64,000 nt of DNA from contig JAJRTK010000277.1 of the NCBI GenBank assembly GCA_024278345.1, positions 3,612 through 67,611 on the forward strand, in the 5' to 3' direction. The notes beneath the pieces were generated by a model. The model was not told where the DNA came from, ran no database searches, and saw nothing but the letters and a program-made list of their open reading frames with translations. Position 1 is the first letter of the stretch. Each line of letters starts with the position of its first letter. The position numbers were made by a program, and so were the translations under genes. This stretch comes from a bacterium. Lineage in GTDB: Bacteria; CSSED10-310; JAJRTK01. Below are positions 9,251-54,300 of this stretch, piece by piece.

Positions 9251-11164
9251 ATGGGTAAAGTTATCGGGATTGATCTTGGAACGACGAACAGTGTCGTGGC
9301 GGTGATGGAAGGCGGCGAGGCAACCATCATTCCGAATCCGGAAGGCGCACGAACAACGCCATCGGTTGTTGCATTTGCCAAGGATGGGCAGAGGCTCGTG
9401 GGGCAGGTGGCGAAGCGGCAGGCCATCACGAATCCGGAGAAGACCGTCTATTCCATCAAGCGCTTCATGGGGCGACGGTATGAAGAAGTCAGTGAAGAGA
9501 TCAGCCTGGTCCCGTACAAGGTGATCCGCAACTCCAACGGCGATGCTCGCGTCGATATCGATGGCTCAGCTTTTTCGCCGCCAGAGATCTCCGCGATGGT
9601 GTTGCAAAAGCTCAAGGCGGCAGCGGAGGACTATCTGGGCGAGAAGGTTACTGAAGCGGTGATTACGGTTCCCGCGTATTTCAACGATGCTCAGCGGCAA
9701 TCGACGAAGGATGCTGGAAAGATCGCGGGGCTGGAGGTGAAGCGTCTGGTCAACGAGCCAACGGCGGCGGCTCTCGCATTTGGCTTGGATAAAAAGAAGG
9801 AAGAGACCATCGCGGTTTACGATTTTGGTGGCGGGACGTTTGACATCTCGATCCTCGAAGTCGGAGACGGTGTGGTCGAGGTAAAATCGACGAACGGTGA
9901 CACGCACCTTGGTGGAGACAACATCGATCAGCGGGTCATCGACTGGATCGTCACGGAGTTTAGGAAAGAACAGGGGATCGACCTTTCGCAGGATGCCATG
10001 GCAGCGCAGCGCCTCAAGGAGGCGGCGGAAAAAGCCAAGTGTGAGCTATCTACGCTGTCGGAGACAGATATCAACTTGCCATTTATCACCGCGGACGCCA
10101 GCGGCCCCAAACACCTGAACCTCCGGCTATCCCGGAGCCGATTTGAGCAGCTCTGCGACGATCTGTTCGAGCGGACTCTGGAGCCTTGTCGACGAGCATT
10201 GGCGGATGCGGGGCTCAAGGCAGGCGATATCGACGAAGTGGTTCTGGTTGGTGGATCGACGCGAATCCCAAAGATCCAAGAGCTCGTGGAAAAGCTCTTT
10301 GAAAAACGGCCACACAAAGGCGTCAACCCCGACGAAGTCGTTGCTGCCGGAGCAGCCATTCAGGCCGGTGTTCTCTCCGGTGACGTGAAGGACCTGCTTC
10401 TCCTGGACGTCACCCCCCTCTCCCTGGGAATTGAGACTCTTGGTGGGGTCTTCACGAAGCTCATCGAACGAAACACGACGATCCCGACGAAGAAGAGCGA
10501 GATCTTCTCCACGGCAGCCGACAACCAGTCCAGTGTGGAGATCCACGTTCTCCAGGGCGAACGTGAAATGGCCCGGCACAACCGGACGTTGGGCAAGTTT
10601 CATTTGGTGGGCATCCCGCCAGCGCCCCGGGGAGTTCCTCAGGTCGAGGTGACGTTTGACATTGATGCCAACGGTATTGTGAACGTCTCGGCCAAGGATC
10701 TTGCCACGGGCAAGCAACAGCAAATCACGATCACATCTTCCAGCGGCCTGAGCGACGGTGAGATTGAGCGCATGGTTGATGACGCGGAATCGCACGCCGA
10801 CGAGGATCGTGCAAATCGTGAGCTCATCGATCTTCGAAATCGGGCAGACAGCCTGGTTTACGGAACCGAAAAGACGCTCAAGGAGCACAGGGAAAAACTT
10901 CCATTGGCCGACGTTACAGAGATCGAGAAGGCGATGGAGGAGACGAAGAAGGCCATCGAATCGAATGAGCGAGCCAGCATCGAATCAGCCCTGGAGCGTC
11001 TCACAACCGCGTCGCACAAGATGGCCGAAATCATGTACAAGCAGGCGGCTGAGCGGAACCAAGCCCAAGGATCTACCTCCGGTGATTCGGGGCCCAGCAC
11101 GGACGGCGAAACCGCCGCCCATGCAGATGATGTCGTTGATGCGGAATTCGAAGACGTGGACTAA
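9251..11164 (+). CDS. dnaK: Molecular chaperone DnaK (Hsp70).
   Basis: [39 protein letters not shown] and a C-terminal acidic EEVD-like tail (AEFEDVD). Confidence 0.97.
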
Positions 11165-11316
11165 GCAAGAGAATCGAACGGTACTCCCTGAGTTCCCGGA
11201 AACGGGAGCTCGGGAACCACTCATGGCGGTGGCGCCAATCGAGGCTTCCGGCTCGATAGGCCCGCCGCGCTTCCCTGGGAGCAGCTCGGTCTTGGAACCA
11301 TGAGCTGTGAACATGC

Positions 11317-12423
11317 ATGTCGATGGACTTCTACCAGATAATGGGCGTGGACAAGGACGCGACTGGGAGCGAAATCAAGCAGGCCTACCGGCGGCTGGCC
11401 CGGCGGCACCACCCCGATCTCAACCCTGGCGACACAGAAGCCGCGAAACGTTTTCAGGAGCTCCAGCATGCGTATGAAGTACTGAGCGACCGCGGCAAGC
11501 GCCGCCGTTATGATCGCTTTGGTGCGGCGGCTTTTGGAGCCCAAAAGCCCGAAGCGCCCTTCGGGTTCGACTTTGCCTTCGATTCGGCCCGCTCCTGGGG
11601 AAAGAGCCTTGGAGAGCTCTTCAGCGACCTGTTTGCAGGCGGGGGCAGCGACAAGAAGCTGAGCCGGGGCAAAGATATCCAGTACAACATGGAGCTGAGT
11701 TTCGAAGATTCGCTTCGCGGAGTCACGGCCACGATCAAGCTCCAGAAGGATGTGCGATGTTCACGATGCCAGGGCCGTGGTCGCATCCCCAGCGACCAGG
11801 AAACTCCCTGCCCTAGATGCGAGGGAACAGGAAAAGAAGAAGTGCGGCGGGGTCCTTTTCGTTTCTCCAGAGAATGTAGCCGCTGCAACAGCTCTGGCGT
11901 TGTCAGGGACGAAACTTGCGAGCCTTGTTCGGGGCAAGGGCTGAAGAGAACGGAAGAACGGATCACTGTCAAAATCCCCGCCGGAGTCGATGAGGGGTCC
12001 ATCGTGCGGCTCCCTGGAAAAGGGGAGGCGGGGCCCTATGGAGGGGAATCAGGCGACCTCGTGATCCAGACTCACGTGGTGCCTCATCCGTTTTTCGAAA
12101 GAAAAAACCTCAACATTTACTGCGAGATTCCCATCACTTTCGCCGAAGCCGCGCTGGGCGCAAGGATTCCCGTCCCCACCATCGATGGAATGGCCTCCAT
12201 GAAGATTCCTCCGGGAACTCAAAGCGGGCAAGTCTTTCGGCTCCGGGAAAAAGGCGTCTCTCAAATGGACGGCAACGGGCGGGGAAACCAATATGTCAAA
12301 GTAACCATCGCCGTTCCCAGCCTTATCGACGAAGACTCCAAAGAACTCATCCGCCATCTGGCCCACCGGCTGGCGCAAGAACCACGGGAAAAACTCTATC
12401 TCGAATCGGGGCTTCTGACCTAA
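11317..12423 (+). CDS. dnaJ: DnaJ-family co-chaperone (paralog 1): J domain, G/F region, four CxxCxGxG zinc motifs and a C-terminal domain.
   Basis: DFYQIMGV…HPDLNPGD J domain with the HPD triad. CSRCQGRG, CPRCEGTG, CSRCNSSG and CEPCSGQG motifs. Confidence 0.85.
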   Translation: MSMDFYQIMGVDKDATGSEIKQAYRRLARRHHPDLNPGDTEAAKRFQELQHAYEVLSDRGKRRRYDRFGAAAFGAQKPEAPFGFDFAFDSARSWGKSLGELFSDLFAGGGSDKKLSRGKDIQYNMELSFEDSLRGVTATIKLQKDVRCSRCQGRGRIPSDQETPCPRCEGTGKEEVRRGPFRFSRECSRCNSSGVVRDETCEPCSGQGLKRTEERITVKIPAGVDEGSIVRLPGKGEAGPYGGESGDLVIQTHVVPHPFFERKNLNIYCEIPITFAEAALGARIPVPTIDGMASMKIPPGTQSGQVFRLREKGVSQMDGNGRGNQYVKVTIAVPSLIDEDSKELIRHLAHRLAQEPREKLYLESGLLT

Positions 12424-12434
12424 GAGGATGCAAA

Positions 12435-12827
12435 ATGAAGACAGGCTGCTACTCCATTGGCGTCGTCTCGGAAATGTTGGGAATCCACCCTCAAACCATC
12501 CGCTACTACGAAAAAGTTGGGCTACTCCAACCGGCGCGCAGCCCCGGAAATACTAGGCTCTACTCCGACGAAGATGTTCAGCGCGTCCAGGTGGTCCACA
12601 GCCTGGCTCGGGAACATGGCGTCAATATGGCTGGAATCCGGATCATTCTGAAGCTCCGGGACAAGTACGAGGAAGAACTCCGGCAAGTGGAAATGGAATA
12701 CAGCGAGATGGTGGAGTATCTGATGCGCCTTGTGAAGAGCCACCTGGAGGATGATCTCGACAAGAATAGCGGGACTCTGGTTCCAGTTTTTGCTAGAATG
12801 CCAATGCGGTGTGATCTGAGAGTTTAG
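12435..12827 (+). CDS. hspR: MerR-family heat-shock repressor HspR. A CbpM-like modulator is the alternative.
   Basis: N-terminal MerR helix-turn-helix (YSIGVVSEMLGIHPQTIRYYEKVGLL…RLYSDEDVQRVQ). It sits downstream of dnaK-dnaJ as in actinobacterial dnaK-grpE-dnaJ-hspR operons. A HAIR-like operator lies upstream of dnaK. Confidence 0.7.
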   Translation: MKTGCYSIGVVSEMLGIHPQTIRYYEKVGLLQPARSPGNTRLYSDEDVQRVQVVHSLAREHGVNMAGIRIILKLRDKYEEELRQVEMEYSEMVEYLMRLVKSHLEDDLDKNSGTLVPVFARMPMRCDLRV

Positions 12828-12986
12828 TCCGTTGGCAGCGCTCCCGTGAACTGTCATCACCTTAGAGAACATGATGTTTCACGACCGGACTTGGAGAAAA
12901 ACAATTTGCCTAGACTCACTCCGGCCTTTGAGGCTTGATCGACTGACAACCACCTGAAAAAAAGAAACTTTCCGGAGCCACCAACG

Positions 12987-14102
12987 ATGTACTCAAATAA
13001 AACAGAGCCGGACTACTACGAACTCCTGGGCTTGCGGCGAGACGCCTCGGCGCCAGAAATCAAGCGTGCTTATCGCAAAAAAGCGCTCGAATTTCACCCG
13101 GATCGCAACCCGGGAAACAAAGTCGCGGAAGAAAACTTCAAACTGGTAGCAGAGGCTCATGAAGTTCTCTCCGACCCAACAAAACGTGAAATTTACAATC
13201 GCTACGGCCGCCAGGGACTCAGAGGAAGAGGTGCCCAGCCAGGGTTTGGGGATCTGGGCGATATTTTCGGGAGTGTTTTCGAGGAGTTCTTTGGCGGCGG
13301 CGGAAATCGGCACTCTGGCCCGCGTCCGACCCGTGGACGGGACTACCGTCAAGACATGACCATCAGCTTTGAAGAAGCGGCTTTTGGCACCCAAAAGGAA
13401 ATCGACTTCAAGCGGGTCGTCCGCTGCGAACCCTGCCAGGAAACTGGCTGCCAACCCGGTAGCCCATCCGAGGTTTGCTCCACCTGTGGCGGCCGCGGAC
13501 AGGTGGCGCGGTCTCAGGGTTTCTTTACACTCACCACCACTTGTCCGCACTGCAATGGCATGGGAGAAACGTTCCGAGACCCTTGTCTCGAATGCAAGGG
13601 AAGAGGACGAAAAGTCGTCGAAAAAACGATCACTGTGTCCGTTCCCGCGGGAGTAGACAACGGCGTGCGCATCCGCGTAGCCCGTCAAGGGGAAGATGGC
13701 GAACATGGAGGTCCACCAGGAGATCTCTATGTTTTCTTGACCGTTGAGCCCCACGAGTTTTTTGTTCGGGACGGAGACGACCTACGAATCGAGATCCCCA
13801 TTTCGTTTTCGCAAGCCGCCTTGGGAGATCAGGTGGAGGTTCCCACCCTGCAAGGGATGCGAAAAATTACGATTGAGCCGGGTACTCAGACAGGAGCCGA
13901 GCTCAGGATCCGGAAGGCAGGGATGCCGAATCCCAGAGGATTCGGTGTAGGCGATCTCATGGTAAGCCTGAGAGTTTCCACGCCTACCAAGCTAGATCCT
14001 AGAGCCGAAGAGCTTTTGCGAGAGCTTGCGGAGATTGAAGGCCGCGAATTGACGGAACACAAGAGCTTTTTCGATCGGGTCCGGGATAGCCTCCACCTAT
14101 AG
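12987..14102 (+). CDS. dnaJ: Chaperone DnaJ (canonical paralog 2).
   Basis: DYYELLGL…HPDRNPG J domain. G/F region. [27 protein letters not shown] and CLECKGRGR zinc-finger motifs. C-terminal peptide-binding domains. Confidence 0.9.
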
Positions 14103-14556: not shown

Positions 14557-15645
14557 GTGATCGCGAAGACGGTTGGGGAGCGGATAGGAACTCAGTCTTT
14601 GGCGCCAAGTACATCGGCCAGGCTTTCGGTCCTGATCGCTGGGTGTGGCGGGCAGTCAGTCGGCGCGGGCATTATCAAGGCACTGGCTCCACTACCTCGG
14701 TATCGCCTGGTCGCAGCCGATATGCGGCTGGATTGCGCGGCCCTTTTGAATGCGGAGGCGGCCTACCAGTTGCCCTCCGCCAGAGATCCCGCATACGGAA
14801 AAGCTGTCTTGCGCCTATGCCGACAAGAAGGCGTCCAGGCCATCTTGCCGGGCTCACACCCGGACACGATCCAACTCAGCAAAATGGCGGAGACGTTGGA
14901 AGATCAGGGAGTTCGGGTCATCGGCAATCCCTGGCCCTGCGTCAAAGCGGCAACGGACAAGTTGAAATGCATGCGTCTTCTGGCCAGGCACGGCGTTCCT
15001 GTTCCTGACACCGAACCGGGTGACAATTGGGACTCTCTGGTGAAGCGCGTGGGGTTTCCCATCATTCTCAAACCCCGTTGGGGCCAAGGAAGCAAGGGCG
15101 TTCGGCTGGTGAGTAGTCGACGAGAGGTGGCTCTGTTGCTGGAACTTCACGAGATCTCCGGAGATGAAGTGATCGTCCAGGAGGCCATCGGCTCTGATGG
15201 AGAGGAGTTCACGACGGGCCTGATCCTAGGGTTTTCAGGCGATCTTTTGGGAGCGGTGACGCTCCGGAGGAAGATCTGTAGTGGCTACACGGGAACGGCT
15301 CTTTGCGAGCCTTCCTTGGAGTGCGAAACCGTGGCAAGACAGGCGGCGGCGGCGCTGGGAGCTCGGGGCCCGTTCAATGCTCAAATGCGCCTTCATCGCG
15401 GCGTGCCAACGATTTTCGAAATCAACCCAAGGTTCTCAGGTACGACTCCCATGCGGGCATGGCTGGGTCTGAACGGCCCCCATCTCCTGATTCAGAGTTT
15501 TCTTTTGGGAATCGAAAAAATCTCTGCTCCGCCGCGGAGGGGGGTCCTCGTGCTTCGGGATCTTCGAGAGAGCTATTTCGAAGAAGCCGATTTGGAGAAG
15601 ATTATCTCTTTGGAGGACCGGGTTTCGATCTTTCCCAGGGGCTGA
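14557..15645 (+). CDS. ATP-grasp domain protein (carboxylate-amine ligase-like).
   Basis: ATP-grasp hallmarks: PVPDT…FPIILKPRWGQGSKGVRLV, EEFTTGLI, and a C-terminal MRLHRGVPTIFEINPRFSG (E-x-N Mg-binding). GTG start with an upstream GGAAGGAG. Confidence 0.65.
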   Translation: MIAKTVGERIGTQSLAPSTSARLSVLIAGCGGQSVGAGIIKALAPLPRYRLVAADMRLDCAALLNAEAAYQLPSARDPAYGKAVLRLCRQEGVQAILPGSHPDTIQLSKMAETLEDQGVRVIGNPWPCVKAATDKLKCMRLLARHGVPVPDTEPGDNWDSLVKRVGFPIILKPRWGQGSKGVRLVSSRREVALLLELHEISGDEVIVQEAIGSDGEEFTTGLILGFSGDLLGAVTLRRKICSGYTGTALCEPSLECETVARQAAAALGARGPFNAQMRLHRGVPTIFEINPRFSGTTPMRAWLGLNGPHLLIQSFLLGIEKISAPPRRGVLVLRDLRESYFEEADLEKIISLEDRVSIFPRG

Positions 15646-18105: not shown

Positions 18106-18155
18106 CTTAGTTCCGGTTTCGAAGCGCTGTGCCTGTCAGTCATGGTAGGGGTTTG

Positions 18156-20225
18156 ATGAAGATTGTTTCTCTAGTCATCACCGTTGGTCTCTTGGTTACG
18201 GGATTGGCTCTCTGGGTTCCGCCAGTGGATGCGGGAAGTCGTGCGTGGAGTCTTGAAGGTCCCGATGGAGGCATTCCCGACTATTTGTTTGTCAGCCCCA
18301 GCAAGAAGAATGTCTGGATGGTCTCCAGGGGCTTCCTTTTTCGATACCGCGATACGAAAAGGGCCTGGGAAAGCGTGCCTCTGGACACGACGTTCGATTT
18401 TGTGCGAAGCGTGGCATTTTCTCCGGACAATGACGAACATATCCTTGTTTCCACTAGCAGAGGCCGGGTCCTTCGGTCCTTCGACGGCGGTCAAACCTGG
18501 GAGGCTGCGGTCTTGGTGCCGGGATTGCTAGTCTGGCATGTTGCGGTGGATCCATTCGATAGCTCCCATGCTTTGGCGTCGATCTCGAGTATCGCGGCTG
18601 GGCTTTTTGAGACTCGGGACTTTGGGGCAACGTGGAAGAGGAGGGGGTTGGAAGGGGTCAAACCGGGAAAGATCTATTTCGATCCTAACCAAGAGGGACA
18701 TGTCTATGTTGCAAGTTCAAACTCTGGGACAATTTTCCTGACAACTGATGGCGGGGCAACCTACAAGCGCCTCTCGGGGGCATTGGGCGGGTTTCTCGAG
18801 CCGATCGATCTGCACCTGGGTAATACGACGATCCGGAAGAACGTGATGTTCGCGGGCACAACCAGCGGTGTCATCAAGAGCGTCGATGGGGGAAGGCGCT
18901 GGCACCTGGCGGGATTCCGGGACGCGGTGACGGGGCTGGCGATCCGGCGTGATGGTGTGATCATCGCGGCTTCCCTTCGGGGTTTGTGGGCGGGAGATCC
19001 TCGAGGTGACACCTTCGAACAGCTCATTCCCAAAGAGAATCCTCTGTACGGCTCGAGGTTCGATGCCGCGATCTTGCGGAATGACTTGCTCTATTTGGGA
19101 TCGACGATTGGGGGCGTTCAGACGACCTCGACCCTTGGGTTGAGCTTCAACGCGCAAAACCGGGGCTTCAAGGGGGTCAGTCTCCTTTCCCTGGACGTCG
19201 ATGAAACGACGGGAGATATTCTTGTGGGCGCCAGCTCGGGAGCCGGGCTGTATCTCCAGCGGGGAGACGACCTCTGGCGGCGGTGGCAAGAAACGGGGCG
19301 AAGCCTCAATCTCTCCGCGCCGAGGCTTCTGGCGGTCCGAAGTCGTCAAGATCGCAACAAATTGTATGTCGCTTCCACCAATGGAGGCATCATCTACAGC
19401 ACTGATGAAGGGGAGAACTGGACGAGTATCACCCTGAACACTTCCGGGGCTCTTCCCCTCCGCGTGGTTCTTCCGCCTGGCATCGACGGGCCGGACGGGT
19501 TGGTGATGGCAACGAATCTAGGTGTTTTCCAGTTTAGACGGGAGGTCAATGCCTGGGTGAAGCTCTTTCCCGAAAGCCTGGGTGAGGCCACGGAGTTAGT
19601 GTACAACCCGGAGAATCCGGATCGGGTCTACTTGGGAACCGAGATCAGCCTCTACCGGAGCGATGACGGGGGAACGACCATGGTGGATCTTTCGAAGCCG
19701 GTGCGGGATCTGTTCGGAGACCCGCCGGGTGATCCGCTGCCCCTCTATGTTCAGGATATCGCGTTGGATCCTACGGACCCGAGGCGACTCTTGGTATCGT
19801 TTCGGGACCGGGGGGTTTGGCAGAGCAGGAATGGGGGAAACAGATTGGATCCCTACATTTTCATCGAGGCTCCCGAGTCTTTCCAGTCGCTGGCCATCAG
19901 CCCCCGGCAATTTGCCCATCAGTATTTCGGGACCCTTTTCAACGGCGTCATTCGGACGGCCAATGGCGGAAAGGACTTTGAGTCTTTTAGCGATGGGCAA
20001 GGATATCCGAACATCTTGGAGCTGGTTTTCGACAGGAAGAGACCGCTGACCCTGTACGCGCGCTTGAGGAATCTCGGGCTCGATGCGTATACTTTCGGGG
20101 ACGTGCCGGACCCTGAGCCGGTCGTTCCTGGACTTGGCGCCGCGGGAGTGGTTGTGCTTCTCCTGCTGTTTGGCCTCCTCCTGAACCCTGTTTGTTGGAG
20201 GAAGTTGACAAGCCAGGCTCAATGA
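18156..20225 (+). CDS. Secreted BNR/Asp-box repeat protein (Ycf48 or sialidase-like beta-propeller) with a C-terminal PEP-CTERM-like sorting signal.
   Basis: Signal peptide MKIVSLVITVGLLVTGLALW. At least six Asp-box motifs: SFDGGQTWEA, TTDGGATYKRL, SVDGGRRWHL, STDEGENWTSI, SDDGGTTMVDL, TANGGKDFESF. C-terminus VPDPEPVVPG-LGAAGVVVLLLLFGLLL-NPVCWRK reads as PEP, then TM helix, then basic tail. Confidence 0.7.
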   Translation: MKIVSLVITVGLLVTGLALWVPPVDAGSRAWSLEGPDGGIPDYLFVSPSKKNVWMVSRGFLFRYRDTKRAWESVPLDTTFDFVRSVAFSPDNDEHILVSTSRGRVLRSFDGGQTWEAAVLVPGLLVWHVAVDPFDSSHALASISSIAAGLFETRDFGATWKRRGLEGVKPGKIYFDPNQEGHVYVASSNSGTIFLTTDGGATYKRLSGALGGFLEPIDLHLGNTTIRKNVMFAGTTSGVIKSVDGGRRWHLAGFRDAVTGLAIRRDGVIIAASLRGLWAGDPRGDTFEQLIPKENPLYGSRFDAAILRNDLLYLGSTIGGVQTTSTLGLSFNAQNRGFKGVSLLSLDVDETTGDILVGASSGAGLYLQRGDDLWRRWQETGRSLNLSAPRLLAVRSRQDRNKLYVASTNGGIIYSTDEGENWTSITLNTSGALPLRVVLPPGIDGPDGLVMATNLGVFQFRREVNAWVKLFPESLGEATELVYNPENPDRVYLGTEISLYRSDDGGTTMVDLSKPVRDLFGDPPGDPLPLYVQDIALDPTDPRRLLVSFRDRGVWQSRNGGNRLDPYIFIEAPESFQSLAISPRQFAHQYFGTLFNGVIRTANGGKDFESFSDGQGYPNILELVFDRKRPLTLYARLRNLGLDAYTFGDVPDPEPVVPGLGAAGVVVLLLLFGLLLNPVCWRKLTSQAQ

Positions 20226-20264
20226 CCTATTAAACAATAGGTAGGTGAGCAATCAAGAGTTTAG

Positions 20265-20888
20265 GTGGATGAGTGGATGAGTGTGAAAGGAAGGAGGACA
20301 ACCTTGAAAAGGTGCCTTTCGCTTGCAGCTATGATCGTTGTTCTTGGATTTGCAGGAGCAAACTTCGCCACGGCGAACACGTTTGTTTTCTCGCATCTCC
20401 TTGAGCAGTCGGGAACCCTTCTCGATACCCAAAACACTTTCGACACCACGATTTTCGTGGCTTATACCGAAGGCCAGGGTGGCGTGCCGGCAGATGCAAC
20501 GGCGTCTTCTATCGACATTTTCATTTTCGATGAAGTCACCGGTGATCTGTTGTTGGCGGACGATGGCTCGACGGCCATCTGTGCTCCGTGCAATTTCCCC
20601 ATGGGTTCGGATGGTTTGACCAACTCGTTCGATCCAACCGTGGGTGACAACAACACGGGTATCAGCCCTCGCAAGAGGAAGCTGAGCATCGAGCAGATGA
20701 TCAAGGATAAAAACGGCGGCAGTTTCCTTTCCGCCGGGATTGTGCTCGGTTATGTTATCGCGGTAACCAACGGAAACGTTGACGCCATGAATCTGACGAG
20801 CGCCGTGGTCAATGCCCGAAGCGGTCCCGCGGATCTTGCGGTGTTCGTTTTCGAGCCTCAGCCAATTGCGGCGGCGGCAGTGCGTTAA
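20265..20888 (+). CDS. Secreted hypothetical protein encoded in a lower-GC segment.
   Basis: Signal peptide (CLSLAAMIVVLGFAGANFATA). Local GC about 50% against about 62% in the flanks. No motif recognised. Confidence 0.45.
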   Translation: MDEWMSVKGRRTTLKRCLSLAAMIVVLGFAGANFATANTFVFSHLLEQSGTLLDTQNTFDTTIFVAYTEGQGGVPADATASSIDIFIFDEVTGDLLLADDGSTAICAPCNFPMGSDGLTNSFDPTVGDNNTGISPRKRKLSIEQMIKDKNGGSFLSAGIVLGYVIAVTNGNVDAMNLTSAVVNARSGPADLAVFVFEPQPIAAAAVR

Positions 20889-21017
20889 GACGGTCGGATG
20901 ATCGTTTTGTAGAAAGGGCCAGGGTCTTATGCTCCTGGTCCTTTCTGCCGTTTTTCAGGGCTGGGAAAGTAGCAGCCCGAGTCTTCGAGGAAGCCCCATG
21001 TCACGACGGTTCACTAT

Positions 21018-22100
21018 TTGTCTTCTGGTGCTCCTGGTTTTGCGGGATGCGAGCAGAAGCCCCGCGAGACTTTCGCGCAGATCCAAAAACAGTTTGAGGG
21101 AAAGAAAGTCATTCCCGTGGGGGCCGCGGCGAACCGAGCCGCTCTGGCTGAGAAGGAGGCGGGTGCAAAGAGGAATCCAGAGGATTTCGCGACTCAGTAC
21201 AACTTAGCAGTCACCGCGCTTCAGGCGCGAAAGTGGGAGATCGCCCTGGCTGCGGCGGCCAAAGCCCACAGTCTCAAACCAGATTCTAACGTCGCGCGAG
21301 AAATCTACGCCTACTGTCTTCAGCAGCAGGGAAAGCTCGATGAAGCCGCCAAGATCTGGGAATTGATCGTCACGAGCGAAAAGCCCTTTAAGTCGATGAT
21401 CCGCAACAACCTCTGCAACTATTACAAGATCCGGAAGCAGTTCCAGAAGGCGGAGATGGAATGTCTTCAGGCACTTGAGGACAAAGATCTTTTCAGTCCT
21501 GAGATCGTCCACCTGAACTTGGGGGATGTCTATTTGCAGCAGGGACGCTTCCCCAAAGCAATCCAGGCGATCCAGGAAGGGCTTAAGATCTCTCCCAACC
21601 TCCGGTACGCCCATCACCAACTTGGGCGGATCGCGCTCCTGCAGGAAGACTACTCTGGCGCGATGGAGGAATTTGAAAAGGAGACGGCCAATCCCAGGGC
21701 GTCGTGGGAAAGCCACTACTATCTGGCGGTGGCGGCGTCCCGCGTGGTTCCTCCTCAACTGGACCGAGCAAGAAAGGCCATGGAGAAAGTCGATGAGCTA
21801 CGGCCAGGAGAGAGCGCATATCATCGGGCCGTCCTGGCAGAGCTGTACCTTGACGCAGGCAAGAGCGAGGAGGCTGGGAAACTCGCCAAAGAAGCAGTTG
21901 AAGGAATGCCTATTTTTCGCAAGGATCAGCGAAATCTTGCTTATTACGTCCTGGCTCGGAGCCTATCAGAGCTGGGCGAGACAGAAAAAGCGAAAGATTC
22001 CTACCAGAAGTTCCGAGAGACGGAATCGGCTGTCGATGGAACAGATCCCCAGCAGCGGAGGCGGATGAATGCGCTGGAACGCCTATTTGGCTCACATTAG
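21018..22100 (+). CDS. TPR-repeat protein, probably a lipoprotein.
   Basis: Multiple 34-residue TPR units with the W-LG-Y / A-F-A-P pattern (e.g. YNLAVTALQARKWEIALAAAAKAHSLKP…, LNLGDVYLQQGRFPKAIQAIQEGLKISPN). The listed start is TTG. GFAGC looks like a lipobox. The signal peptide appears in the adjacent frame (see findings). Confidence 0.6.
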   Translation: MSSGAPGFAGCEQKPRETFAQIQKQFEGKKVIPVGAAANRAALAEKEAGAKRNPEDFATQYNLAVTALQARKWEIALAAAAKAHSLKPDSNVAREIYAYCLQQQGKLDEAAKIWELIVTSEKPFKSMIRNNLCNYYKIRKQFQKAEMECLQALEDKDLFSPEIVHLNLGDVYLQQGRFPKAIQAIQEGLKISPNLRYAHHQLGRIALLQEDYSGAMEEFEKETANPRASWESHYYLAVAASRVVPPQLDRARKAMEKVDELRPGESAYHRAVLAELYLDAGKSEEAGKLAKEAVEGMPIFRKDQRNLAYYVLARSLSELGETEKAKDSYQKFRETESAVDGTDPQQRRRMNALERLFGSH

Positions 22101-22605
22101 CTTGGTGGCGGGCCTACTTCTGTTGCTCCCGGCCTGCCGGACGGAGCAGAAACCCAAATCCCAGCAGACGCCCCAGATAGAAACTCACGACATCGACCCC
22201 AAGCTGGCTCGGCATATTCGGGAGCGAGCCGAAGCCTATCTTGAGGCATTGAAGAACGACGACTTTGACGCAATGTGGGCCATGATCGACGAGGGCTCGA
22301 AGAAAAAAACCGGCATCGCCAAGTTTGTAAGAATGAACGGGTACCGGAATGTGGGAGCCTTCTTTGGAATGCGGGTGGCATCGGTGAGGGGTATCGATGA
22401 GAAGGCGGTCCTGGTCAAGTCGGTGGTCCGGTTCCAGTATTTCGGCACGATCTTCCCCGACCCGGATCCGACTCCCGTCGTTTTCAACTGGGAGGAGAAA
22501 TGGAAACTTGCCCCGGACGGCGAGTGGTACCGAGTGATTCCCGAACCCGATCCCGAGCGGCAGAAACAGCTTGAATCGGTCTGTAGCAGCAAGCGCCGGC
22601 AATGA
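22069..22605 (+). CDS. Hypothetical lipoprotein.
   Basis: Lipoprotein signal MRWNAYLAHISLVAGLLLLLPAC. Soluble 150-aa domain with no recognisable motif. Confidence 0.5.
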   Translation: MRWNAYLAHISLVAGLLLLLPACRTEQKPKSQQTPQIETHDIDPKLARHIRERAEAYLEALKNDDFDAMWAMIDEGSKKKTGIAKFVRMNGYRNVGAFFGMRVASVRGIDEKAVLVKSVVRFQYFGTIFPDPDPTPVVFNWEEKWKLAPDGEWYRVIPEPDPERQKQLESVCSSKRRQ

Positions 22606-22647
22606 CGGGGGCTGCTCGCCCTCTGGGCTCGGCTTTCCGGTGCCTCT

Positions 22648-23223
22648 TTGGGGCCGGCGGCGGCCCATGAAAGGAATGGCATGTTCTTTCGGACCCGGCA
22701 ATTGATTCGGGAGAACCGGGTTCTGCTCCGGTTCTACCTTCTCTTCGCGTACCTGGTCCTGCTCCTGTACCTCTGTTTGCAGATGGAGTTGACTCACCGT
22801 TGGATCGCCGTAAGTCTTCCTGGGTTCGTCGCCGGGCTGGTGGCTTGGTTCTTGTCTGTGGTGGGGATGGATGCGCAGGCGTTTGGCACGACGGTGAGTA
22901 TTGTGGATGGATTGAGTTTCCGTATCATCTACCACTGCACCGGACTCTTCCTGATGTCCATCTACGCTTCTGCTGTCTGGGCCTATCCGGCCACCTGGTT
23001 GGAGCGGCTTTTAGGTCTCGTACTGGGTTTGCCTGTCCTATTCGGGCTCAACGTCCTTCGTTTGGCCGCACTGGGGATCGTGGGAAAGTATTTTCCCCAG
23101 TATTTCGATCTTTCCCACGAATATCTTTGGCAGGGCTTGCTCATCGTCTTCGTGCTGGTCCTTTGGGTCCAATGGCGGGATCGGATCGTGACGGGCCGGG
23201 GACAGCTTCGACTAGCGACATGA
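22648..23223 (+). CDS. Minimal exosortase/archaeosortase-family-like polytopic membrane protein (speculative).
   Basis: Five TM helices. Intramembrane Cys in FRIIYHCTGLFLMSIY, comparable to the exosortase ACSG(L/I)RS active-site Cys motif. A downstream N-x-x-R motif (LNVLRLAALGIV) and further Arg residues about 40 residues later. It sits next to a TPR protein and a protein with a PEP-CTERM-like tail. Confidence 0.35.
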   Translation: MGPAAAHERNGMFFRTRQLIRENRVLLRFYLLFAYLVLLLYLCLQMELTHRWIAVSLPGFVAGLVAWFLSVVGMDAQAFGTTVSIVDGLSFRIIYHCTGLFLMSIYASAVWAYPATWLERLLGLVLGLPVLFGLNVLRLAALGIVGKYFPQYFDLSHEYLWQGLLIVFVLVLWVQWRDRIVTGRGQLRLAT

Positions 23224-23224
23224 A

Positions 23225-23839
23225 TTGGTGGTGCGGGTGAAGAGTTCGGCAGGGCAGTCAACGCAGTTCTCCGCGGCCTATGTTGGGCGTTTTTTTCTTT
23301 TGTCGGCGGGTATCTTCCTGCTCTATCCGGTTCTTCTGCCCGCTTATGCAACCCTTCTGGTGACGCCGATTACCGTGGCCATCACCGAGCTTCACGCGAT
23401 GAGAGACGGGGTTTCCTTTGCCTTTGAATGGCGGGACTGGAGCACGATTCGCGGTTTGGCCTCGGTGAACTTCGCGCCGCTGTGCCAAAACACGGTGGTA
23501 TTGAGCGCGCTGATCCTGGCCCTCCAATGGCCATTGGCAAAGCGGATTCGAACTCTTGCCATCGCCTCGATGCTATTGTTTCTGCTGAACGAGCTGCATC
23601 TGGCGCTGATCGTTTTGTACAATTATCATGTGACTTTCCCTTCTCCTGATCCTGGCTTCTGGAAAGACCTGGGTTGGAGGATCGTTTCCATCGCGTATCA
23701 CCAGGGCAGGCAGGTGGGAACCATGCTCTTCCCCTTCGCACTGTTTCTCCTCCTGCTGCTCCGCCAAGCAAAAAGCCCCGCCAACGGCGGGGCTTTTTGC
23801 AACAAGAAAGAGGAGCATGGGCCATCTCAAGTGGGTTGA
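23225..23839 (+). CDS. Polytopic membrane protein (4-5 TM), possibly functionally linked to or originally fused with the upstream exosortase-like gene.
   Basis: Hydrophobic helices (FFLLSAGIFLLYPVLLPAYATLLVTPITVAI; TVVLSALILALQWPL; LAIASMLLFLLNELHLALIVL). The first ATG lies far downstream, so the start is TTG or GTG (23225-23237), 1-5 nt after the upstream stop and in a different frame. Confidence 0.35.
   Translation: MVVRVKSSAGQSTQFSAAYVGRFFLLSAGIFLLYPVLLPAYATLLVTPITVAITELHAMRDGVSFAFEWRDWSTIRGLASVNFAPLCQNTVVLSALILALQWPLAKRIRTLAIASMLLFLLNELHLALIVLYNYHVTFPSPDPGFWKDLGWRIVSIAYHQGRQVGTMLFPFALFLLLLLRQAKSPANGGAFCNKKEEHGPSQVG
23775..23799. terminator. Bidirectional rho-independent terminator: GCCCCGCC-aacg-GGCGGGGC flanked by A5 and T5.
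   Basis: Perfect 8-bp GC stem with a 4-nt loop and a T-run on both strands. It lies at the 3' end of the + strand membrane-protein gene and 28 nt downstream of the minus-strand small ORF that ends at 23827. Confidence 0.7.
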
Positions 23840-24051
23840 GTACGGCTTCCTTCCTGAAACCGGCTCACGTGATAAACATCGCCATCCTTGTAGCGGATCT
23901 CATAGAGGATATAGCGTTCTCCTTTAACAGCGCGAAAGTAGGCAACCCCCCGCTGCTTGCCTCCACGGAGATAGCCCATGGCGTTCTTTTTGTCTCTCAC
24001 GTACATTTGCTGAAGGTAGCGGACGCCTTCTTCGTCTCCAGTCACTCTCAA
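23827..24051 (-). CDS. Small basic hypothetical protein (74 aa), possibly toxin-like.
   Basis: Non-random composition rich in Lys, Tyr and Arg (GYLRGGKQRGVAYFRAVKGERYILYEIRYKDGDVYHVSRFQE), unlike spurious high-GC ORFs. It is followed by the strong terminator at 23775-23799. Confidence 0.4.
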   Translation of the reverse strand: MRVTGDEEGVRYLQQMYVRDKKNAMGYLRGGKQRGVAYFRAVKGERYILYEIRYKDGDVYHVSRFQEGSRTQPT

Positions 24052-47302: not shown

Positions 47303-48394
47303 TCAAACAGCCCAGGGGGGCCGCCAATTCACAACCTCGTCCACCATCCAGCCCACTGCCTCTACGGGAGTTCCGGGCAGAACGCCGTGACCAAGGTTGA
47401 AGATGTGGCCACGACCGCCCCCGACATCGAGAATCGCTCGGGTTTTTGAGCGAACATGCGATTCCGGCCCAAAGAGAGTCACCGGATGAAGATTCCCCTG
47501 AACCGAAGAACCGCCCAAGCGCTGCCAGCACTCATCCACGGGAAGCTGCCAATCAATACCCACGACGTCGGCGCCGGCCTCCGAGACATCCTCCAAGAAT
47601 GCCGAGCACCCCTTGGGAAAGTAGATCACGGGAACTCGCCCGGAGATTCTCTGGACGATCTCCCGGACGAAAGGTAGGCAATAGCGGCGAAACTCCTCCC
47701 GTCCAAGGTTCCCGGCCCAAGTATCAAAAATTTGCACGGCTTGGGCACCCGCGTCCACTTGCGCCTCCAAATAAGCGGCAACCGTCTGGGTCAGCTTTTC
47801 AAGGAGTAAGAGTCCCGCGGATTCGTCATGGGCCAGGAAGCGGCCAAGCCAGGTAAACTGCTTGGCTCCGCTGCCCTCCACAAGATAGGTGGCCAAGGTA
47901 TATGGGGCGCCGGCAAACCCGATGAGAGGAACCCCCCGGCTCTCAAGTTCCCGACGCAGGAGACGCACCCCCTCCAAGACGTAGGGCACGGATTCCCGAG
48001 GATCGGGAACCCTCAATGCCTCCACTTGCTTTCGGCTGCGAATGGGATCACCGATAACCGGTCCAGGATTGAAAGTCAGATCGATCCCCATGGCCTCCAG
48101 CGGGACCATGATATCGGAAAAGAGGATCGCCGCGTCGAATCGGTACCGTTCGATGGGCTGAAGGGTCACCTCGCAGAGGAGATCGGGGCTCTTACAGAGC
48201 TCCAAGAAACTGACCTTCTCCCGCACCGCGCGATATTCAGGAAGGTATCGCCCAGCCTGGCGCATCATCCAGACGGGGGGTCTGTCCACGGACTCGCCTC
48301 GGCAAGCCTGCAAAAAACGTTGGTTCACGTTGTCTCCAATTGGGTGTTCGTTTCCCGGTGGCGGGATCAAGCCTCCACCCGGTGCCGGCGCCAA
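47303..48394 (-). CDS. hemE: Uroporphyrinogen decarboxylase.
   Basis: URO-D signature PPVWMMRQAGRYLPEYR. Length 363 aa. The first ~14 codons of the listed ORF overlap the 3' end of the giant gene and may not be translated. Confidence 0.9.
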   Translation of the reverse strand: MAPAPGGGLIPPPGNEHPIGDNVNQRFLQACRGESVDRPPVWMMRQAGRYLPEYRAVREKVSFLELCKSPDLLCEVTLQPIERYRFDAAILFSDIMVPLEAMGIDLTFNPGPVIGDPIRSRKQVEALRVPDPRESVPYVLEGVRLLRRELESRGVPLIGFAGAPYTLATYLVEGSGAKQFTWLGRFLAHDESAGLLLLEKLTQTVAAYLEAQVDAGAQAVQIFDTWAGNLGREEFRRYCLPFVREIVQRISGRVPVIYFPKGCSAFLEDVSEAGADVVGIDWQLPVDECWQRLGGSSVQGNLHPVTLFGPESHVRSKTRAILDVGGGRGHIFNLGHGVLPGTPVEAVGWMVDEVVNWRPPWAV

Positions 48395-51300
48395 ATAATC
48401 CGGCCAGCTCCAACCAGCAAGAGTAGCAAGGCCAAGAGAAGGAGAGCTTCCGACATCGCTCCCACGCTGGGGAGCAGGTCCGTCGCCTCCGTCCAGGTTC
48501 CATTGCCGCTATCAGGGTCGTCCGTGACCGCCGTGACGACAAAGCTCGTGCTCAAAGGAGTCACGGCCGTTGAAGAAACCGTTGTCTCCACCATGACGAT
48601 AGCGGTCTGCAGGGAAGCCAGCGAACCCAAATCGCAGGTCAAAGTCCCGCTATTGTCGGTGCAGCCCAGGGCGGAGACCAAGGTCAATCCTCCATCCAAA
48701 GTCACTTCCAAAGTGACTCCCGAGGCATCTGACGGCCCACCATTGGTCACCGTGGCCGTGTAATTTAGTTTTCCACCCACAGCGGCCGGATCCAGATCGT
48801 CGGCGACGCTCACCGAAAGATCGGCCGATGTCGTGACAACGATGCTCCCGGTTCCACTGTCATTCGCCGAGTTTTGGTCTCTGGTCGATGATGTCACCGT
48901 CCAAATCATGTCGGCCAAAGAGCTGGCGGAGGAATCGAGAAGGGCATCCAGATCCACCGAAATCGCACTGCCAGACGGGATGTCGCCAAGATCGCAGGTG
49001 ACCAGCCCTCCGCTTTCCGAGCAGCTCGCCGAAGTCGCCCGCACGGGCGCAACGAAGGTCAGGCCGTTGGGCAACGCCCCTGATAAGCTGCCACCACTGG
49101 CTGTCCGTGGTCCGTTGTTCGTCACCGTGACCGTATAGGTCACCGCCGAACCCGCAATGGCAGGACTGGTTGTCGAAACGGAAGTCACCTCCAGATCGGC
49201 ATACTCTTCCCCTTGCACGAAGAGCACCAGAGGATCGTGATCGGATGCACGCACGGGAGTGTTTGGATCGGCGGCGGCGCTCCCCTCATCGGGAGCGTCG
49301 GCGTTGACCCGACCGAACTCGATGCCCGTGACGGTTTGGGCCATGCTTTCGGAAGTTAAAATGTGATCCAGCACCTGCGCGGACCCGTTGGCCTGCCACG
49401 AATAGCGCTCTTCCAGAGCAAGATTCAGCACCTGATTGGTCATGTCCGGAGTGACCTCATCCGTCACGGGGATCACCGAATCATTGGGATCCGTCAGACC
49501 CCTTATCTGCCCCACGACATCGTAATAGCCGTCGGAGAACTCGAAGGCATTGAAATCCCCCAGCACAATGATGGGCATGTTCGGATCAGCAGTCTGGAGG
49601 GACTGGATATACTGGGAAAGCCTCGTCGCCTGCTCCAATCGCTTCTGCCGTGCAAACTCGCTGGAGTCCACGCCGATGAACGACCGCAAATGCACGGCGA
49701 TGGCCGTGAACGAGAAACTCGTGCCAACTCCGTCCACCTGACCTTCCAACACCAAGGGCACGCGGTCGTAGAGATCGTATGTCTGGCCATCGAGATCGAA
49801 GGTGTCGCTCAGGCCGAACTGGGAAAGGACGATGTTCGACACCTTCCCCTTGGTCAAGAAGCCCACCTGCTGAGAACCGGCGTTGGGGCTATCCATCAGA
49901 TGAGAAGTGTAGATCGTGTTGGGATCTTCGGTGGCAATCTGGGCCACCAGAGCATCGAGAGTCGCCTGATCCTGGACCTCCTCGATGGCCAAAATATCGG
50001 GTGCCTTGAGAACGTCGAGCACAAGCTTCGAAAACTTCTTCAGCCGGTCGGTCTCCGTGTTCCGAAGGAACTCCGTGTTCAACGTCGCCAGCGTGAATTC
50101 CCCGGGCAGCCGATCGCGGACGGCCCGGTAGGTAAAGGTGTTGGAAACGGAAAGGCTCTTGGGCTGAATCTGGTAGTCGCCAAAAACGAAGCCCAGCGGT
50201 CCCTCGGCCGTAAAGGTATCTCCGGCGGACATCTCCACCATGGGCAGGCCAAGAGCGTTGGGATCGAGTTCGAACAGCTCGGGGTTGCCATCCCAAACCG
50301 GGATTCCCGTGAGGCCCGGATACTCGATCCCCGCCTCTCTCAGCGCCCGGGCACGGCCGGGGGCCACCGCCATGAAGTCTCCGTACCGATTGCTGGCTCC
50401 ACTGACGATACCGTCGGTCACCTGGACAAGCATCCCCTCGAACCTCTCCAGAGGCGGCGGATCCGCTGGACTCGACGCCGGCGTCGTGCCGTCGAAAACC
50501 ACTGCCGCGGGAAGCGGATTGCCGGACGAAACCACCGTGACAACAGGAGATCGGGTGATCTCGGTGAAGCTGTAATACTCGTCCACAAGTCCTGTTACAT
50601 CCACCTCGTCGCCCACGGTCACCGATGGGGCGACCTCCGTGAAAACGAAGAGCCCTTCGGAGGTCGCCGGATCGCCATCATCCGTGCCATCGGGCGTCTG
50701 GATGTAGAATCCATCGGCGGCCACGGCTGTCACAAGGTTTCCTTTCAAAACCACGGCCCGGTCGATGTACGGTGACTTGCTGGCGGCCCCTTGGACCTCA
50801 TAAATCTTCAGCTCCGGCAGTGCCACGCAGCCGGAGAAACTCGTGCCATCGATGCGGACGCCCGGGGAGAAACGGCTCCCACCGGAACCCGTCGCCTGAG
50901 AATGCTGAACGTACGGCGGACTCCCAAGAATATCGGGATCGAGAGTGATGGAGTCGCCATTGGCCGCTTCCGCTCCATAGGTGACATCCACCACGTTGCT
51001 CGTGGGATCGTTGGGATCGCGGTAGACTTGAAGGGTGTCGCCAGCGTCATCAAGCCCCAGCCCGCCGGTGGAAGCCGTCTGGACAAGGGCGCCTCCAAAC
51101 GCATTTGGATCGGGAGTTCCACCGCCGAAAACCAGGACGGAGCACTGGTCGGGAAGAAAGCTCCCCGGAGGAAAAACATGGCGCGTGGCCGCGGCATCCT
51201 GCACGACCCACCCGTCTAGGTTGATGTCCACTCCGGAGTCGTTCACGAGTTCCAGGAACTCGTCTTGAGCGGCATCCACGGTGCCATCCCCATTGGCGTC

Positions 51301-54300
51301 GCCCGCGTTGGGATCCGGGGCCGAGTGGATTTCGTTCAGCACGGCCATGGGCGGTCGGCGGCCCGGGGTTGGGATCATGGAATCCCATGTTACCGACAGA
51401 TCCTCCGAGGTCTCGTCATTCCCCCGAAGCCCGTTTCCACCGTAGGGCACCTCGTTTCCCTCCCACGGGTCGATCCGCTGGAACGACTTCCCCGCCGAAT
51501 GCGCGGACGTGGAAATGACATCCTGGCTCGCCGTCACCGTGTCGGCCAAATAGGAGGTGGCCGCCGTATCACCGTCGGGGCCATCCACGGAGATTCCCGT
51601 CTTGTCCACGGCCTCCGCCTTGTCCCCCCAAACAGCATAGTCCAGATCCACGACAAGATCGGACTGGCCGTCCCACTGGTAGAGCACCATCACCTCGCCA
51701 CCACTCAAGCCACTGGAATCCAGGCTCCCATCCTGCTCCCACGGAAGATCGATGGAGCCGCTGAACGCCTCCAACATGTCGGGAACGTTAGGGTCCGTTC
51801 CATACAGCTCGTACGTGGGAGCCGACCCGTAAACAGCCTGAAAATCCAGCGCCCCCTGGACCGCAACCGTCTGGAAATCCCCCGACGCAATGGTCGCTCC
51901 AGAGGGGAACTTCGCATGAAAATCCCTGAAGCTCCCGCCACCAGCCAGGCAGGCGGCTACATTCCCCCCGCCGGTACAATCCGCCGTCACGATGTTGTAA
52001 TAGTAATCTCCCCCGCTGCTATAAGTCGCGTCGGTCAAATAGACGTCGGTCAAATCGATGGTGGCTGTGGTGGGGTTGTGGATCTCCACGAACTGCCCGG
52101 AATCCTGGCTCACCACCAGCTCAGAAAGCTGTAACGTTCGCTCTGGCGCGGGACAACCGGCAAATGGAACTCCGTCACTTTGGGTTCCAGGCGAAAACTG
52201 GACTCCCGGAGGGCCAGCCCCGGCGGTGGTGTGAGGCACGTATGGCATGGAACCGGTAATATCCGGATCCAGAGTGATCGACTGACCCTTCAAAGCCTCG
52301 GCGCCGAATGTCACCTGGACATCCGGATTGTTGGGATCCGCCGGGTTCGGAAGCAAAGAGATGGTGTCGCCGCCATCCACCAACCCCAGACCGCCGGAAG
52401 CCACCTGGACCGTGGTCTTCCCGAAATCCCCCACGGGAGTACCGCCGCCAAACAACACAAGTGCGCAGCCATCGGGAACAACGGTCCCCGAAGGAAAGGT
52501 GTGGACCAATCCCTGTCCCGTTGCCAGGCCCCAGCCCGAAAGATCCGCGGCGGCGCCGGTATTGTTCACCAGCTCGATAAACTCATCGGCGACTCCGTCT
52601 CTCGTGCCGTCGCCATTAGCGTCTCCCAATACGGCGTTCGGATCGATGAGATCTCCCGAATTCGGGTCGGTTATGGGATCGGAGTAGATCTCGTTCACCA
52701 CCCACTGGAATGGCGCCGGCTGGCCCGGCGTCACAGCCGCTGCTCTCCAAGTGGCCGATAGGTTCTCCGAGGTCTCGTCATGCCCCGTGACACCATTCCC
52801 TGCCACTTTGGTTTCCGTGCCCTCATTGAGATCAATCCGGTGCCACGACGAGCCGAAGGGGTGGGCTCCGGTGCTGACGATATCCTGGCTGGAAATTGCG
52901 GTATCGGCGGCATAAGCCGTCCCGGTGACGTCCAGGTCGGGACCATCAACGGAAACCCCCGTCTTGTCCACGGCTTCGACCTTATCGCCCCACACGGCGT
53001 AATCGATATCCCGCACCAGGTCCGAGACGCCATTCCAACGGTAAAGGATGACCACCTCACCGCTATTGGTCAAAGAACCCTGGTTGTTGATGGAACCCGC
53101 GGACGCCTCCCGCATATCCGGGATGGAGTCGGCGGCACCATCTTCGTAAAGCTCGTAGGTGGGGCTCACTCCCCACTGTGTCAGGAATGCGTCGGACCCC
53201 GCTAACGACACGGTTTGGTACTCCCCCGGGGCGATGGAGGACCCGGCGGGAAAACGGGCGTGAAAATCACCAAAATCGCCACCACCGGCGTTGGAACCGG
53301 TCACGATGTTGTAGTAGTAGTTCCCCCCCGTTGAGTAAGTGGCATCGGTCAAATAGAGATCATCCAGGGAAATCGTCACGGGCGTCGGGTTGTGGATTTC
53401 GATGAATTCACCTCCGGTAGGCGTCACCACGATCTCGCTCAAAAGGAGTGTCGGGCCTCCATTGGTCCCGCCCATGGTACAAGGCTGGTCCACCAAGGTC
53501 ACGCCGCCACCGGACGAGCTCCAGTCGTAACCGTCGTTGGGACCGGCTCCGTCGGGAAGCCTGGAAAAACAGCCCGTCTCCGTTCCCCCGCTCCAGCCAA
53601 GCTGATCCACCCGAACCCCCGAACCATCCATGAGATAGGCCACGTCACTGCCGGTGAAGTTCATGGTGCCGGAAAAATCTACTCCAGAAACCAACACGAG
53701 CCAGCCACCGGGTGCCACGGTGCCCCCGGCCAAAGGTGAAAGCTCATCTCCGTCGCTCAACACCCACCCTGTCAGATCGACCGCCACCGAGCCAGGGTTG
53801 TAGAGTTCCACCTGGTCCACGGCATTGGGATCGGGGAAGACATCGATCTCGTTCAGGATGGCGGATGTCCCCAGCGCCGTTCCCCCAACGTCGTTGGCAA
53901 CCCCCTGCGTGGGAGTGGCGTCAAGGTTCCAGTCCACGGCATCCACCCCGGTATCCAGGCCATCGGCGGTCCTGGCCGCACTGGATCCCACGGGAGCGAC
54001 GGGGGCTCCACCCTTCGTCCCATAGGCGACTCGGTCCACTTCCGCTCCGGTATTGTCGCACAGGACCAAGAAATCCCCCACATTGCTCAATGCAAAATTG
54101 TCTCCCGCTCCTCCCGCGGTCACAACGAAAAAACCGCCGTCGGCGATGTTCGTCCCCCCTGGAATCGTGCTGACTCCAACCCCGCAAGCCGCATCGTCAA
54201 GATACCAACCCGCCACGGAAATCACGCCGCTTCCAACGCTGTTATGAAGTTCCACCCACTCCGTGCCCTTCGGCACGAACTCGTTGATGGTGACCGCCGC

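Follow-up and report, generated by a model that had tools for sequence, protein, structure and literature searches.

The 64 kb window analysed here, the whole stretch of contig JAJRTK010000277.1 under study, carries a protein-sorting locus that is most likely a divergent representative of a known system, the exosortase H (XrtH) class, in an uncultured bacterium. The locus comprises six co-directional forward-strand open reading frames (ORFs) in 18.1-23.9 kb, encoding a BNR-repeat propeller protein, a secreted protein, a tetratricopeptide repeat (TPR) protein, a small lipoprotein, a short membrane exosortase and a second membrane protein, here called ORF2. It was compared with the independent metagenome contigs L001, L002, L003 and L084-L087, making eight loci with the window. 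A sequence-only reading of the same DNA had proposed an exosortase-type sorting cluster at this position; the six genes and the motifs it quoted are present, and the assignment of the short membrane ORF to the exosortase family is borne out by the profile matches given below. Assignment to the XrtH class draws on family membership, residue conservation, a conserved tail and a conserved gene order. Given exosortase E-values of 3.6e-25 to 5e-16 and a gene order that recurs in independent metagenome contigs, the cluster is beyond chance.

The exosortase

Profile comparison identifies the short membrane protein as a complete exosortase of the XrtH class. The criterion for membership was the curated cut-off of 86 bits for TIGR04177 (exosortase H), together with XrtH being the best-scoring subfamily. 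The ORF of 191 amino acids (aa) scored 88.8 bits (E 3.6e-25) and its 180-aa form 89.1 bits, and the match spans model positions 1-151 of 158. The exosortase/archaeosortase signature TIGR04178 (58.7 bits vs a cut-off of 23) and PF09721 Exosortase_EpsH (34.4 vs 25.7 bits) were also matched, both being models that the earlier reading had recommended for a search; two further models that it had named, TIGR02602 and TIGR03109, gave no match to the window enzyme at E<=1. Among ten homologues, TIGR02602 matched three (best E 5.7e-8) and TIGR03109 one (E 4e-7), far below the XrtH scores of these proteins. The second-best model was ArtB (TIGR04144), matched over its full length at 77.6 bits vs a cut-off of 150, and XrtX (NF046081) reached 72.5 bits vs 170.

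A BLASTP database search identified ten homologue clusters of 179-186 aa, 55-62% identical to the window protein, and the 10 aligned homologues are 53-60% identical to it. XrtH was the best model for all 10 clade members in a profile scan, and the names given by JGI are "exosortase H (IPTLxxWG-CTERM-specific)" for four homologues and "archaeosortase B" for one. Scans of genomes and metagenome contigs with the XrtH-clade alignment returned pattern matches and no confirmed relative, and a scan of a plasmid collection returned no match.

The polytopic ORF includes the segments IYHCTGLFL and NVLRLAAL, in which a catalytic Cys and an N-x-x-R motif had been suspected. Both withstood comparison, as Cys86, Asn124, Arg127 and His146 are invariant across the alignment of 10 homologues, and the findings that the earlier reading had named as refuting it did not materialise. 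The window enzyme resembles the XrtH system in passing the family cut-off over the full length of the model and in keeping the Cys, Arg and His residues. A review (PMC6098224) reports that the putative catalytic triad residues of sortases are conserved in archaeosortases.

The deposited protein begins at ATG 22681, and the resulting length matches all homologues; hence, the true length of the exosortase is probably 180 aa. The earlier reading was correct in describing a short membrane protein, and its length of 191 aa is the part that needs revision. The structure prediction that it had recommended gave an AlphaFold2 (AF2) model with a predicted local distance difference test score (pLDDT) of 86.3. 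Since many curated families in NCBIfam have 150-175 positions (XrtH, ArtB, XrtX, XrtY, XrtF, XrtM and ArtE), the small size is the norm for this branch of the exosortases.

The BNR protein and its putative C-terminal signal

The main substrate of the exosortase is proposed to be the BNR protein. Its gene lies 2.5 kb upstream of the exosortase gene, and a motif, a hydrophobic helix and basic residues co-occur in its C-terminal tail, which is conserved in orthologues. The protein matched the Pfam models Sortilin-Vps10 (55.8 bits), PSII_BNR (48.3 bits) and BNR (35.6 bits), all above their cut-offs, and the NCBIfam model F510_1955 glycosylhydrolase at 118 bits, under the cut-off of 175; its sequence matches in the PDB are Ycf48/HCF136 propellers. 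Orthologues with 39-40% identity occupy the same position in L001-L003.

The protein terminates in ...GDVPDPEPVVPGLGAAG-VVVLLLLFGLLLNPVC-WRK.... The tails of the orthologues share TFGD-x-x-(D/E)P-x-x-x-VP-[GS], followed by a hydrophobic helix and then Arg/Lys, with V666 and P667 conserved. The strings 'PEP' and 'VPxxxP' occur only in the window protein, the orthologues showing INEPAT and VDEPAT instead; the conserved core of the tail is therefore (D/E)P-x-x-x-VP-[GS], not 'PEP'. The PEP-CTERM model TIGR02595 matched neither the whole BNR protein at E<=1 nor the isolated tails at E<=10. The tail of the L003 orthologue, VPSLGSAGLILASLLLLAAGAVRRRR (VPSLGSAG...RRRR), passed the IPTL-CTERM model TIGR04174 with 23.1 bits vs a cut-off of 20.5; neither the tail of the window protein (VPGLGAAG...WRK) nor that of L001 matched this model. 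By eye, VPGLGAAG of the window aligns with VPSLGSAG of L003. The JGI names quoted above imply that IPTL-CTERM is the cognate signal of XrtH. Given that the orthologous tail passes the IPTL-CTERM model, an XrtH-class enzyme fits better than one of the EpsH/XrtA type. The PEP-CTERM-like tail of the sequence-only reading was thus not upheld, and the tail appears to be IPTL-CTERM-like, with VPGLGAAG as a putative IPTLxxWG-like motif. Unlike the canonical IPTLxxWG, the motif of the window clade is VP[GS]LGxAG, a drift of the signal through which the system is still recognisable from the enzyme and its partner.

In a scan of all window ORFs, one other genuine ORF with a hydrophobic-plus-basic C-terminus was found. 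Its product, of 2046 aa, combines five lamin-tail domains with an Exo_endo_phos nuclease domain (ExeM/NucH-like), DUF11 and CARDB. Its tail matched no curated sorting-signal model, the likeness to IPTLxxWG being seen by eye only, and this surface protein may be a second XrtH substrate. For the S-layer protein of Methylomirabilis lanthanidiphila, an IPTL-CTERM domain has been predicted (PMC8671808), and an IPTL-CTERM system can therefore serve major surface proteins.

Three other systems offer themselves for comparison. ArtB, the enzyme of the VPXXXP-CTERM system, is archaeal. It resembles the window enzyme in being its second-best model, in its similar size (156 positions) and in the JGI name of one homologue, and VPDPEP is literally present in the window tail; however, the window score is half of the ArtB cut-off, VPxxxP is not kept in the orthologous tails, and the DnaK protein of the window is closest to those of bacterial metagenome-assembled genomes (MAGs). 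A VPXXXP-CTERM tail was ruled out, as no hidden Markov model (HMM) match was obtained and the string is not conserved in orthologues. XrtA enzymes have roughly 290-500 aa and 8 transmembrane helices, with an EpsI partner or domain. The EpsH/XrtA system belongs to the same superfamily as the window enzyme (PF09721, TIGR04178), and it likewise combines a tripartite C-terminal signal with a neighbouring TPR lipoprotein. In contrast to it, the window enzyme lacks matches to TIGR02602 and TIGR03109 and the BNR tail to PEP-CTERM, the TPR protein scores 51 bits against PrsT (TIGR02917; cut-off 312), and no genes for exopolysaccharide (EPS) biosynthesis were noticed near the cluster. ArtA of Haloferax volcanii, which acts on PGF-CTERM proteins, is the experimentally studied relative and the source of the mechanistic analogy used here. 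It differs in that the window enzyme scores 44.8 bits against its model (cut-off 75), in its motif and domain of life, and in its larger size (271 positions). Conserved residues are critical for the catalytic activity of ArtA, according to Abdul Halim et al. 2018 as cited in PMC6098224, and PMC7157517 describes ArtA substrates as lipid-anchored after processing of the C-terminal helix.

By analogy with ArtA and sortases, the BNR propeller would be exported by Sec via its N-terminal signal peptide and retained in the inner membrane by the tripartite signal (VPGLGAAG, helix and basic patch). The 180-aa exosortase would then recognise the VP[GS]LGxAG motif, which Cys86, aided by Arg127 and His146, would attack to form a thioester intermediate with release of the helix. 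Finally, a lipid or an envelope polymer at the cell surface would accept the mature propeller. ORF2 would act as an obligatory partner, most likely as a non-catalytic or specificity subunit.

ORF2 and the alternative readings of the locus

ORF2 lies in another frame than the exosortase gene and has TTG and GTG starts only, in agreement with the earlier observation that it has no ATG start. A gene of 181-196 aa is located directly downstream of the exosortase gene in L001-L003 and L084-L087, the copies in L085 and L086 being interrupted by the contig end. With the window included, 8 of 8 loci have ORF2 or its counterpart immediately behind an XrtH-like gene, the junctions varying from a 4-nucleotide (nt) overlap to a 76-nt gap, and a frameshift as the origin of two ORFs is thereby excluded. 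When 1.84 billion representatives were scanned exhaustively with HMMER, the ORF2 family comprised 6 members, to which a profile search added one more. A 1073-aa protein (P0017; E 4e-7 to ORF2) was rejected as an artefact of tandem repeats, in which one short "WRDW" match occurs seven times. ORF2 matched no curated family and no Pfam model. As in the XrtH system, it is a small polytopic partner encoded immediately downstream of the enzyme, and its relatives weakly match NF041730, the "exosortase H-associated membrane protein" family; from these weak matches and the position beside XrtH, ORF2 is most plausibly a very divergent member of that family or a relative of it.

Profiles of the ORF2 family and the XrtH clade, aligned with hhalign, gave a score of 29.2 (P 9e-4, probability 19-23%). 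In this alignment Cys83 of ORF2 is paired with Cys86 of XrtH, and N-E-L-His121 with N-V-L-Arg127 (NELHL / NVLRL). When the alignment was relaxed, it ran collinearly from end to end and also paired the N-terminal Arg-Phe motifs. As controls, reversed profiles scored 14.5-14.7, 150 local column shuffles 13.9 ± 2.7 (maximum 23.5) and 150 block shuffles 16.1 ± 3.4 (maximum 28.2), so that none of the 300 composition-preserving shuffles attained the observed score. In the AF2 models of both ORF2 (pLDDT 74.6) and the exosortase, a long N-terminal helix is followed by a three-stranded sheet, a helix that begins with the Cys, a long helix with N-x-x-R/H and a terminal helix; searches with model and profile found no relative of solved structure. 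Within the ORF2 family, Cys83 is conserved in 8 of 9 sequences (Ser in P0015) and His121 in 7 of 8 (Tyr in P0012), and Asn85 is present in all. As Cys83 and His121 are not invariant, a non-catalytic or modified role of ORF2 is indicated. The profile alignment and the predicted structures are suggestive of ORF2 being a distant, degenerate exosortase paralogue. The broader proposal, that the ORF2 family and by extension the NF041730 family represent an ancient, degenerate exosortase paralogue, which kept the fold and usually the Cys, has His in place of the Arg of the enzyme and forms enzyme/pseudo-enzyme heterodimers with XrtH, is tentative, its chances being a little short of even. No paper describing XrtH enzyme/pseudo-enzyme heterodimers was found in the literature.

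The sequence-only reading had offered a split or frameshifted exosortase and a novel mini-sortase as explanations for the two membrane ORFs. If they were halves of one 8-helix EpsH/XrtA-type exosortase, separated by a frameshift or an assembly indel and serving a PEP-CTERM substrate, the spacing of 1-13 nt, the different frames, the lack of an ATG in ORF2 and a total of about 380 aa would all be accounted for. Yet the first ORF alone covers the XrtH model nearly end to end, its homologues are all of the same short length, ORF2 is a separate gene at every locus with varied junctions, and in the alignment it runs side by side with all of XrtH and does not continue it. As the window protein moreover lacks TIGR02602 and TIGR03109 matches and the tail a PEP-CTERM match, the split enzyme is scarcely credible. 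A new minimal-sortase class outside XrtH, founded by the 180-aa protein and using a sorting signal of its own, would explain why the XrtH score barely exceeds the cut-off with ArtB and XrtX nearly as high, why the window tail and ORF2 both fall under model thresholds, and why the clade is small (10 clusters) with no close relative among species-representative genomes. Against it stand three independent links to one known system, namely the curated XrtH cut-off passed by an enzyme whose clade has XrtH as best model in all 10 members, the orthologous L003 substrate over the IPTL-CTERM cut-off, and the partner relatives that point to the XrtH-associated family; minimal size is, in addition, common to at least seven curated families. 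Such a new class is accordingly very improbable.

For ORF2 itself, a role as a second active sortase with altered Cys/His chemistry, acting on a separate substrate such as the 2046-aa nuclease-like protein, would agree with the frequent retention of Cys83 and His121, the universal Asn85, the XrtH-like predicted topology and the existence of a second tail type in the window. The candidate residues nevertheless vary, P0015 having Ser and P0012 having Tyr at both His positions, the invariant Arg of the XrtH-like homologues is missing, and in the loci seen the gene always accompanies XrtH and never stands alone, all of which makes this role improbable. ORF2 could also be an unrelated small membrane protein, such as a scaffold or a factor handling the acceptor, whose exosortase likeness stems from transmembrane composition. 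The low hhalign probability, TIGR04178 E-values of 0.4-1.2 for the ORF2 family and the lack of a Pfam match would fit. This explanation is the strongest competitor of the paralogue and still rather unlikely, as the hhalign score lies above 300 of 300 composition-preserving shuffles and both reversed controls, the RF, Cys and N-x-x-R/H motifs align in the same order, and the predicted secondary-structure elements of the two proteins come in identical order, down to the three-stranded sheet that immediately precedes the Cys.

Several observations weigh against the assignment to XrtH and against the interpretation of ORF2. Unlike those of the established XrtH system, the window components lie at or below the edge of the models: the enzyme clears its cut-off by only ~3 bits (88.8 vs 86) with ArtB a close second at 77.6 bits, and the tail and the partner go undetected. 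The window BNR tail reaches no sorting-signal model, its basic patch is no more than W-R-K, and a Pro interrupts the composition of its helix, which is of unusual length; the tail could simply anchor the C-terminus in the membrane. The window ORF2 has no match to NF041730 (cut-off 35 bits), and its relatives remain under that cut-off, with 22.6 bits (E 7.3e-5) for P0015 and 10.1 bits (E 0.48, over the full model) for P0012. The hhalign probability for paralogy is low, and one member of the ORF2 family has exchanged the Cys for Ser and another the His for Tyr. The count of substrates is drawn from 64 kb of genome only, and no experimental work on any XrtH was found in the literature.

With the locus read as an XrtH-class cluster, the XrtH/IPTL-CTERM system is extended to an uncultured lineage with no close species-representative relative. 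The cassette is compact and conserved, with one enzyme and one neighbouring substrate, and would lend itself well to a first experimental test of an enzyme of this class. If the partner is indeed a pseudo-exosortase, a heteromeric architecture would be suggested for minimal sortases. The potential for novelty lies solely in this apparent paralogy of exosortase and partner, the rest being a refinement of annotation.

Gene order, neighbouring genes and host

The features of the locus are collected in Table 1. The order BNR protein, secreted protein, TPR protein, lipoprotein, XrtH and partner recurs in L001-L003, and the segment from the lipoprotein to the partner also in L084-L087. In L001-L003 the wider order is [ATP-grasp], ~700-aa polytopic protein, BNR protein to partner, convergent 74-aa ORF and alanine racemase. 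A possible difference from the known XrtH system is this conserved cassette, seen in the window and L001-L003, in which the enzyme is accompanied by one large BNR substrate, the TPR lipoprotein, the small lipoprotein and the ~720-aa protein.

Table 1. Positions of the sorting-locus features in the window.
Feature	Position	Strand	Remarks
Polytopic membrane protein, about 700-720 aa	15699..17867	+	start ATG 15699 inferred from L003 alignment
BNR/Sortilin-type propeller ORF	18129-20225, likely ATG 18156	+	698 aa, signal peptide
C-terminal tripartite signal of BNR protein (putative)	20124..20222	+	VPGLGAAG, hydrophobic helix, short basic patch WRK
Secreted protein, 207 aa	20265-20888	+	signal peptide
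Hairpin and T-run, intrinsic-terminator-like	20909..20948	+	consensus match only
TPR protein	21018-22100	+	TPR Pfam models
Small lipoprotein, 178 aa	22069-22605	+	lipobox LLPAC
XrtH-class exosortase	22648-23223 from TTG (191 aa); 22681-23223 from ATG (180 aa)	+
Candidate catalytic residues of exosortase	Cys86 TGC 22936-22938; Arg127 CGT 23059-23061; His146 CAC 23116-23118	+
ORF2, second membrane ORF	23225-23839; deposited protein P0011 from GTG 23237	+	other frame
ORF2 residues	Cys83 TGC 23483-23485; His121 CAT 23597-23599	+	enzyme has Arg at the His121 position
Tail of 2046-aa surface protein	48370..48477 (gene 48367-54507)	-	LLPSVGAMSE, hydrophobic helix, RIIWRRHR

The TPR lipoprotein, the small lipoprotein, the 207-aa secreted protein and the ~720-aa membrane protein are proposed to be conserved accessory or cargo-associated components. 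The TPR protein matched many TPR models in Pfam, and its orthologues are lipoproteins with an invariant lipobox Cys. In the window, the signal peptide MSRRFTICLLVLLV (ATG 20998) is out of frame with the TPR body (TTG 21018, ...FAGCEQ); one T added to the T4 run at 21038-21041 would yield the fused MSRRFTICLLVLLVFAGCEQ, a good lipoprotein signal. The break is probably either a homopolymer indel of the assembly or a real frameshift. The lipoprotein gene and the end of the TPR gene share 32 nt, an overlap also present in L003; the lipoprotein gene lies directly upstream of the exosortase gene in every locus examined, and Cys23 of its product is invariant in six loci. Searches of Pfam, NCBIfam and the PDB placed neither the lipoprotein nor the 207-aa secreted protein in a known family. 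The latter has syntenic orthologues with 37-40% identity and a conserved C-terminal FEPQ..AAA. The ~720-aa protein combines many transmembrane helices with a soluble C-terminal domain and its gene is always the immediate upstream neighbour of the BNR gene; over 700 aa it shares 50% identity with the product of the syntenic gene in L003, and it had no match in Pfam, NCBIfam or the PDB.

Between the genes for the secreted protein and the TPR protein lies a hairpin with an unusually long, GC-rich 16-bp stem (8 GC pairs) followed by CGTTTTT. As judged from this arrangement, it may be a terminator or attenuator that splits a substrate operon from a machinery operon.

The DnaK protein encoded in the window is at most 73% identical to those of the closest MAGs, labelled Deltaproteobacteria, Acidimicrobiia, Acidobacteriota and others. 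Given this distance to MAGs of several phyla and the absence of an exosortase-clade relative among species-representative genomes, the host is an uncultured, poorly sampled bacterium. The dnaK gene is followed by two full-length DnaJ genes (dnaK to second DnaJ at 9251-14102; DnaJ at 11317-12423 and 12987-14102), both carrying the J, CXXCXGXG and C-terminal domains.

In the window and in L001, the cluster is preceded by an ATP-grasp gene of the PylC-like/ATPgrasp_Ter type; the stretches compared are 14557-15645 of the window, 1-1874 of L001 and 219-1628 of L003. A B12-binding radical-SAM gene on the opposite strand occurs at the ATP-grasp position in L001 and L003 and is absent from the window. 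At the other end of the cluster, a 74-aa ORF on the reverse strand (23827-24051) is convergent with ORF2 and overlaps its 3' end. Pfam, NCBIfam and PDB searches gave nothing usable for it, and it belongs to no Pfam family. Its identity to the corresponding ORFs of four other loci is 67-69%, a level of conservation above that of the sorting genes.

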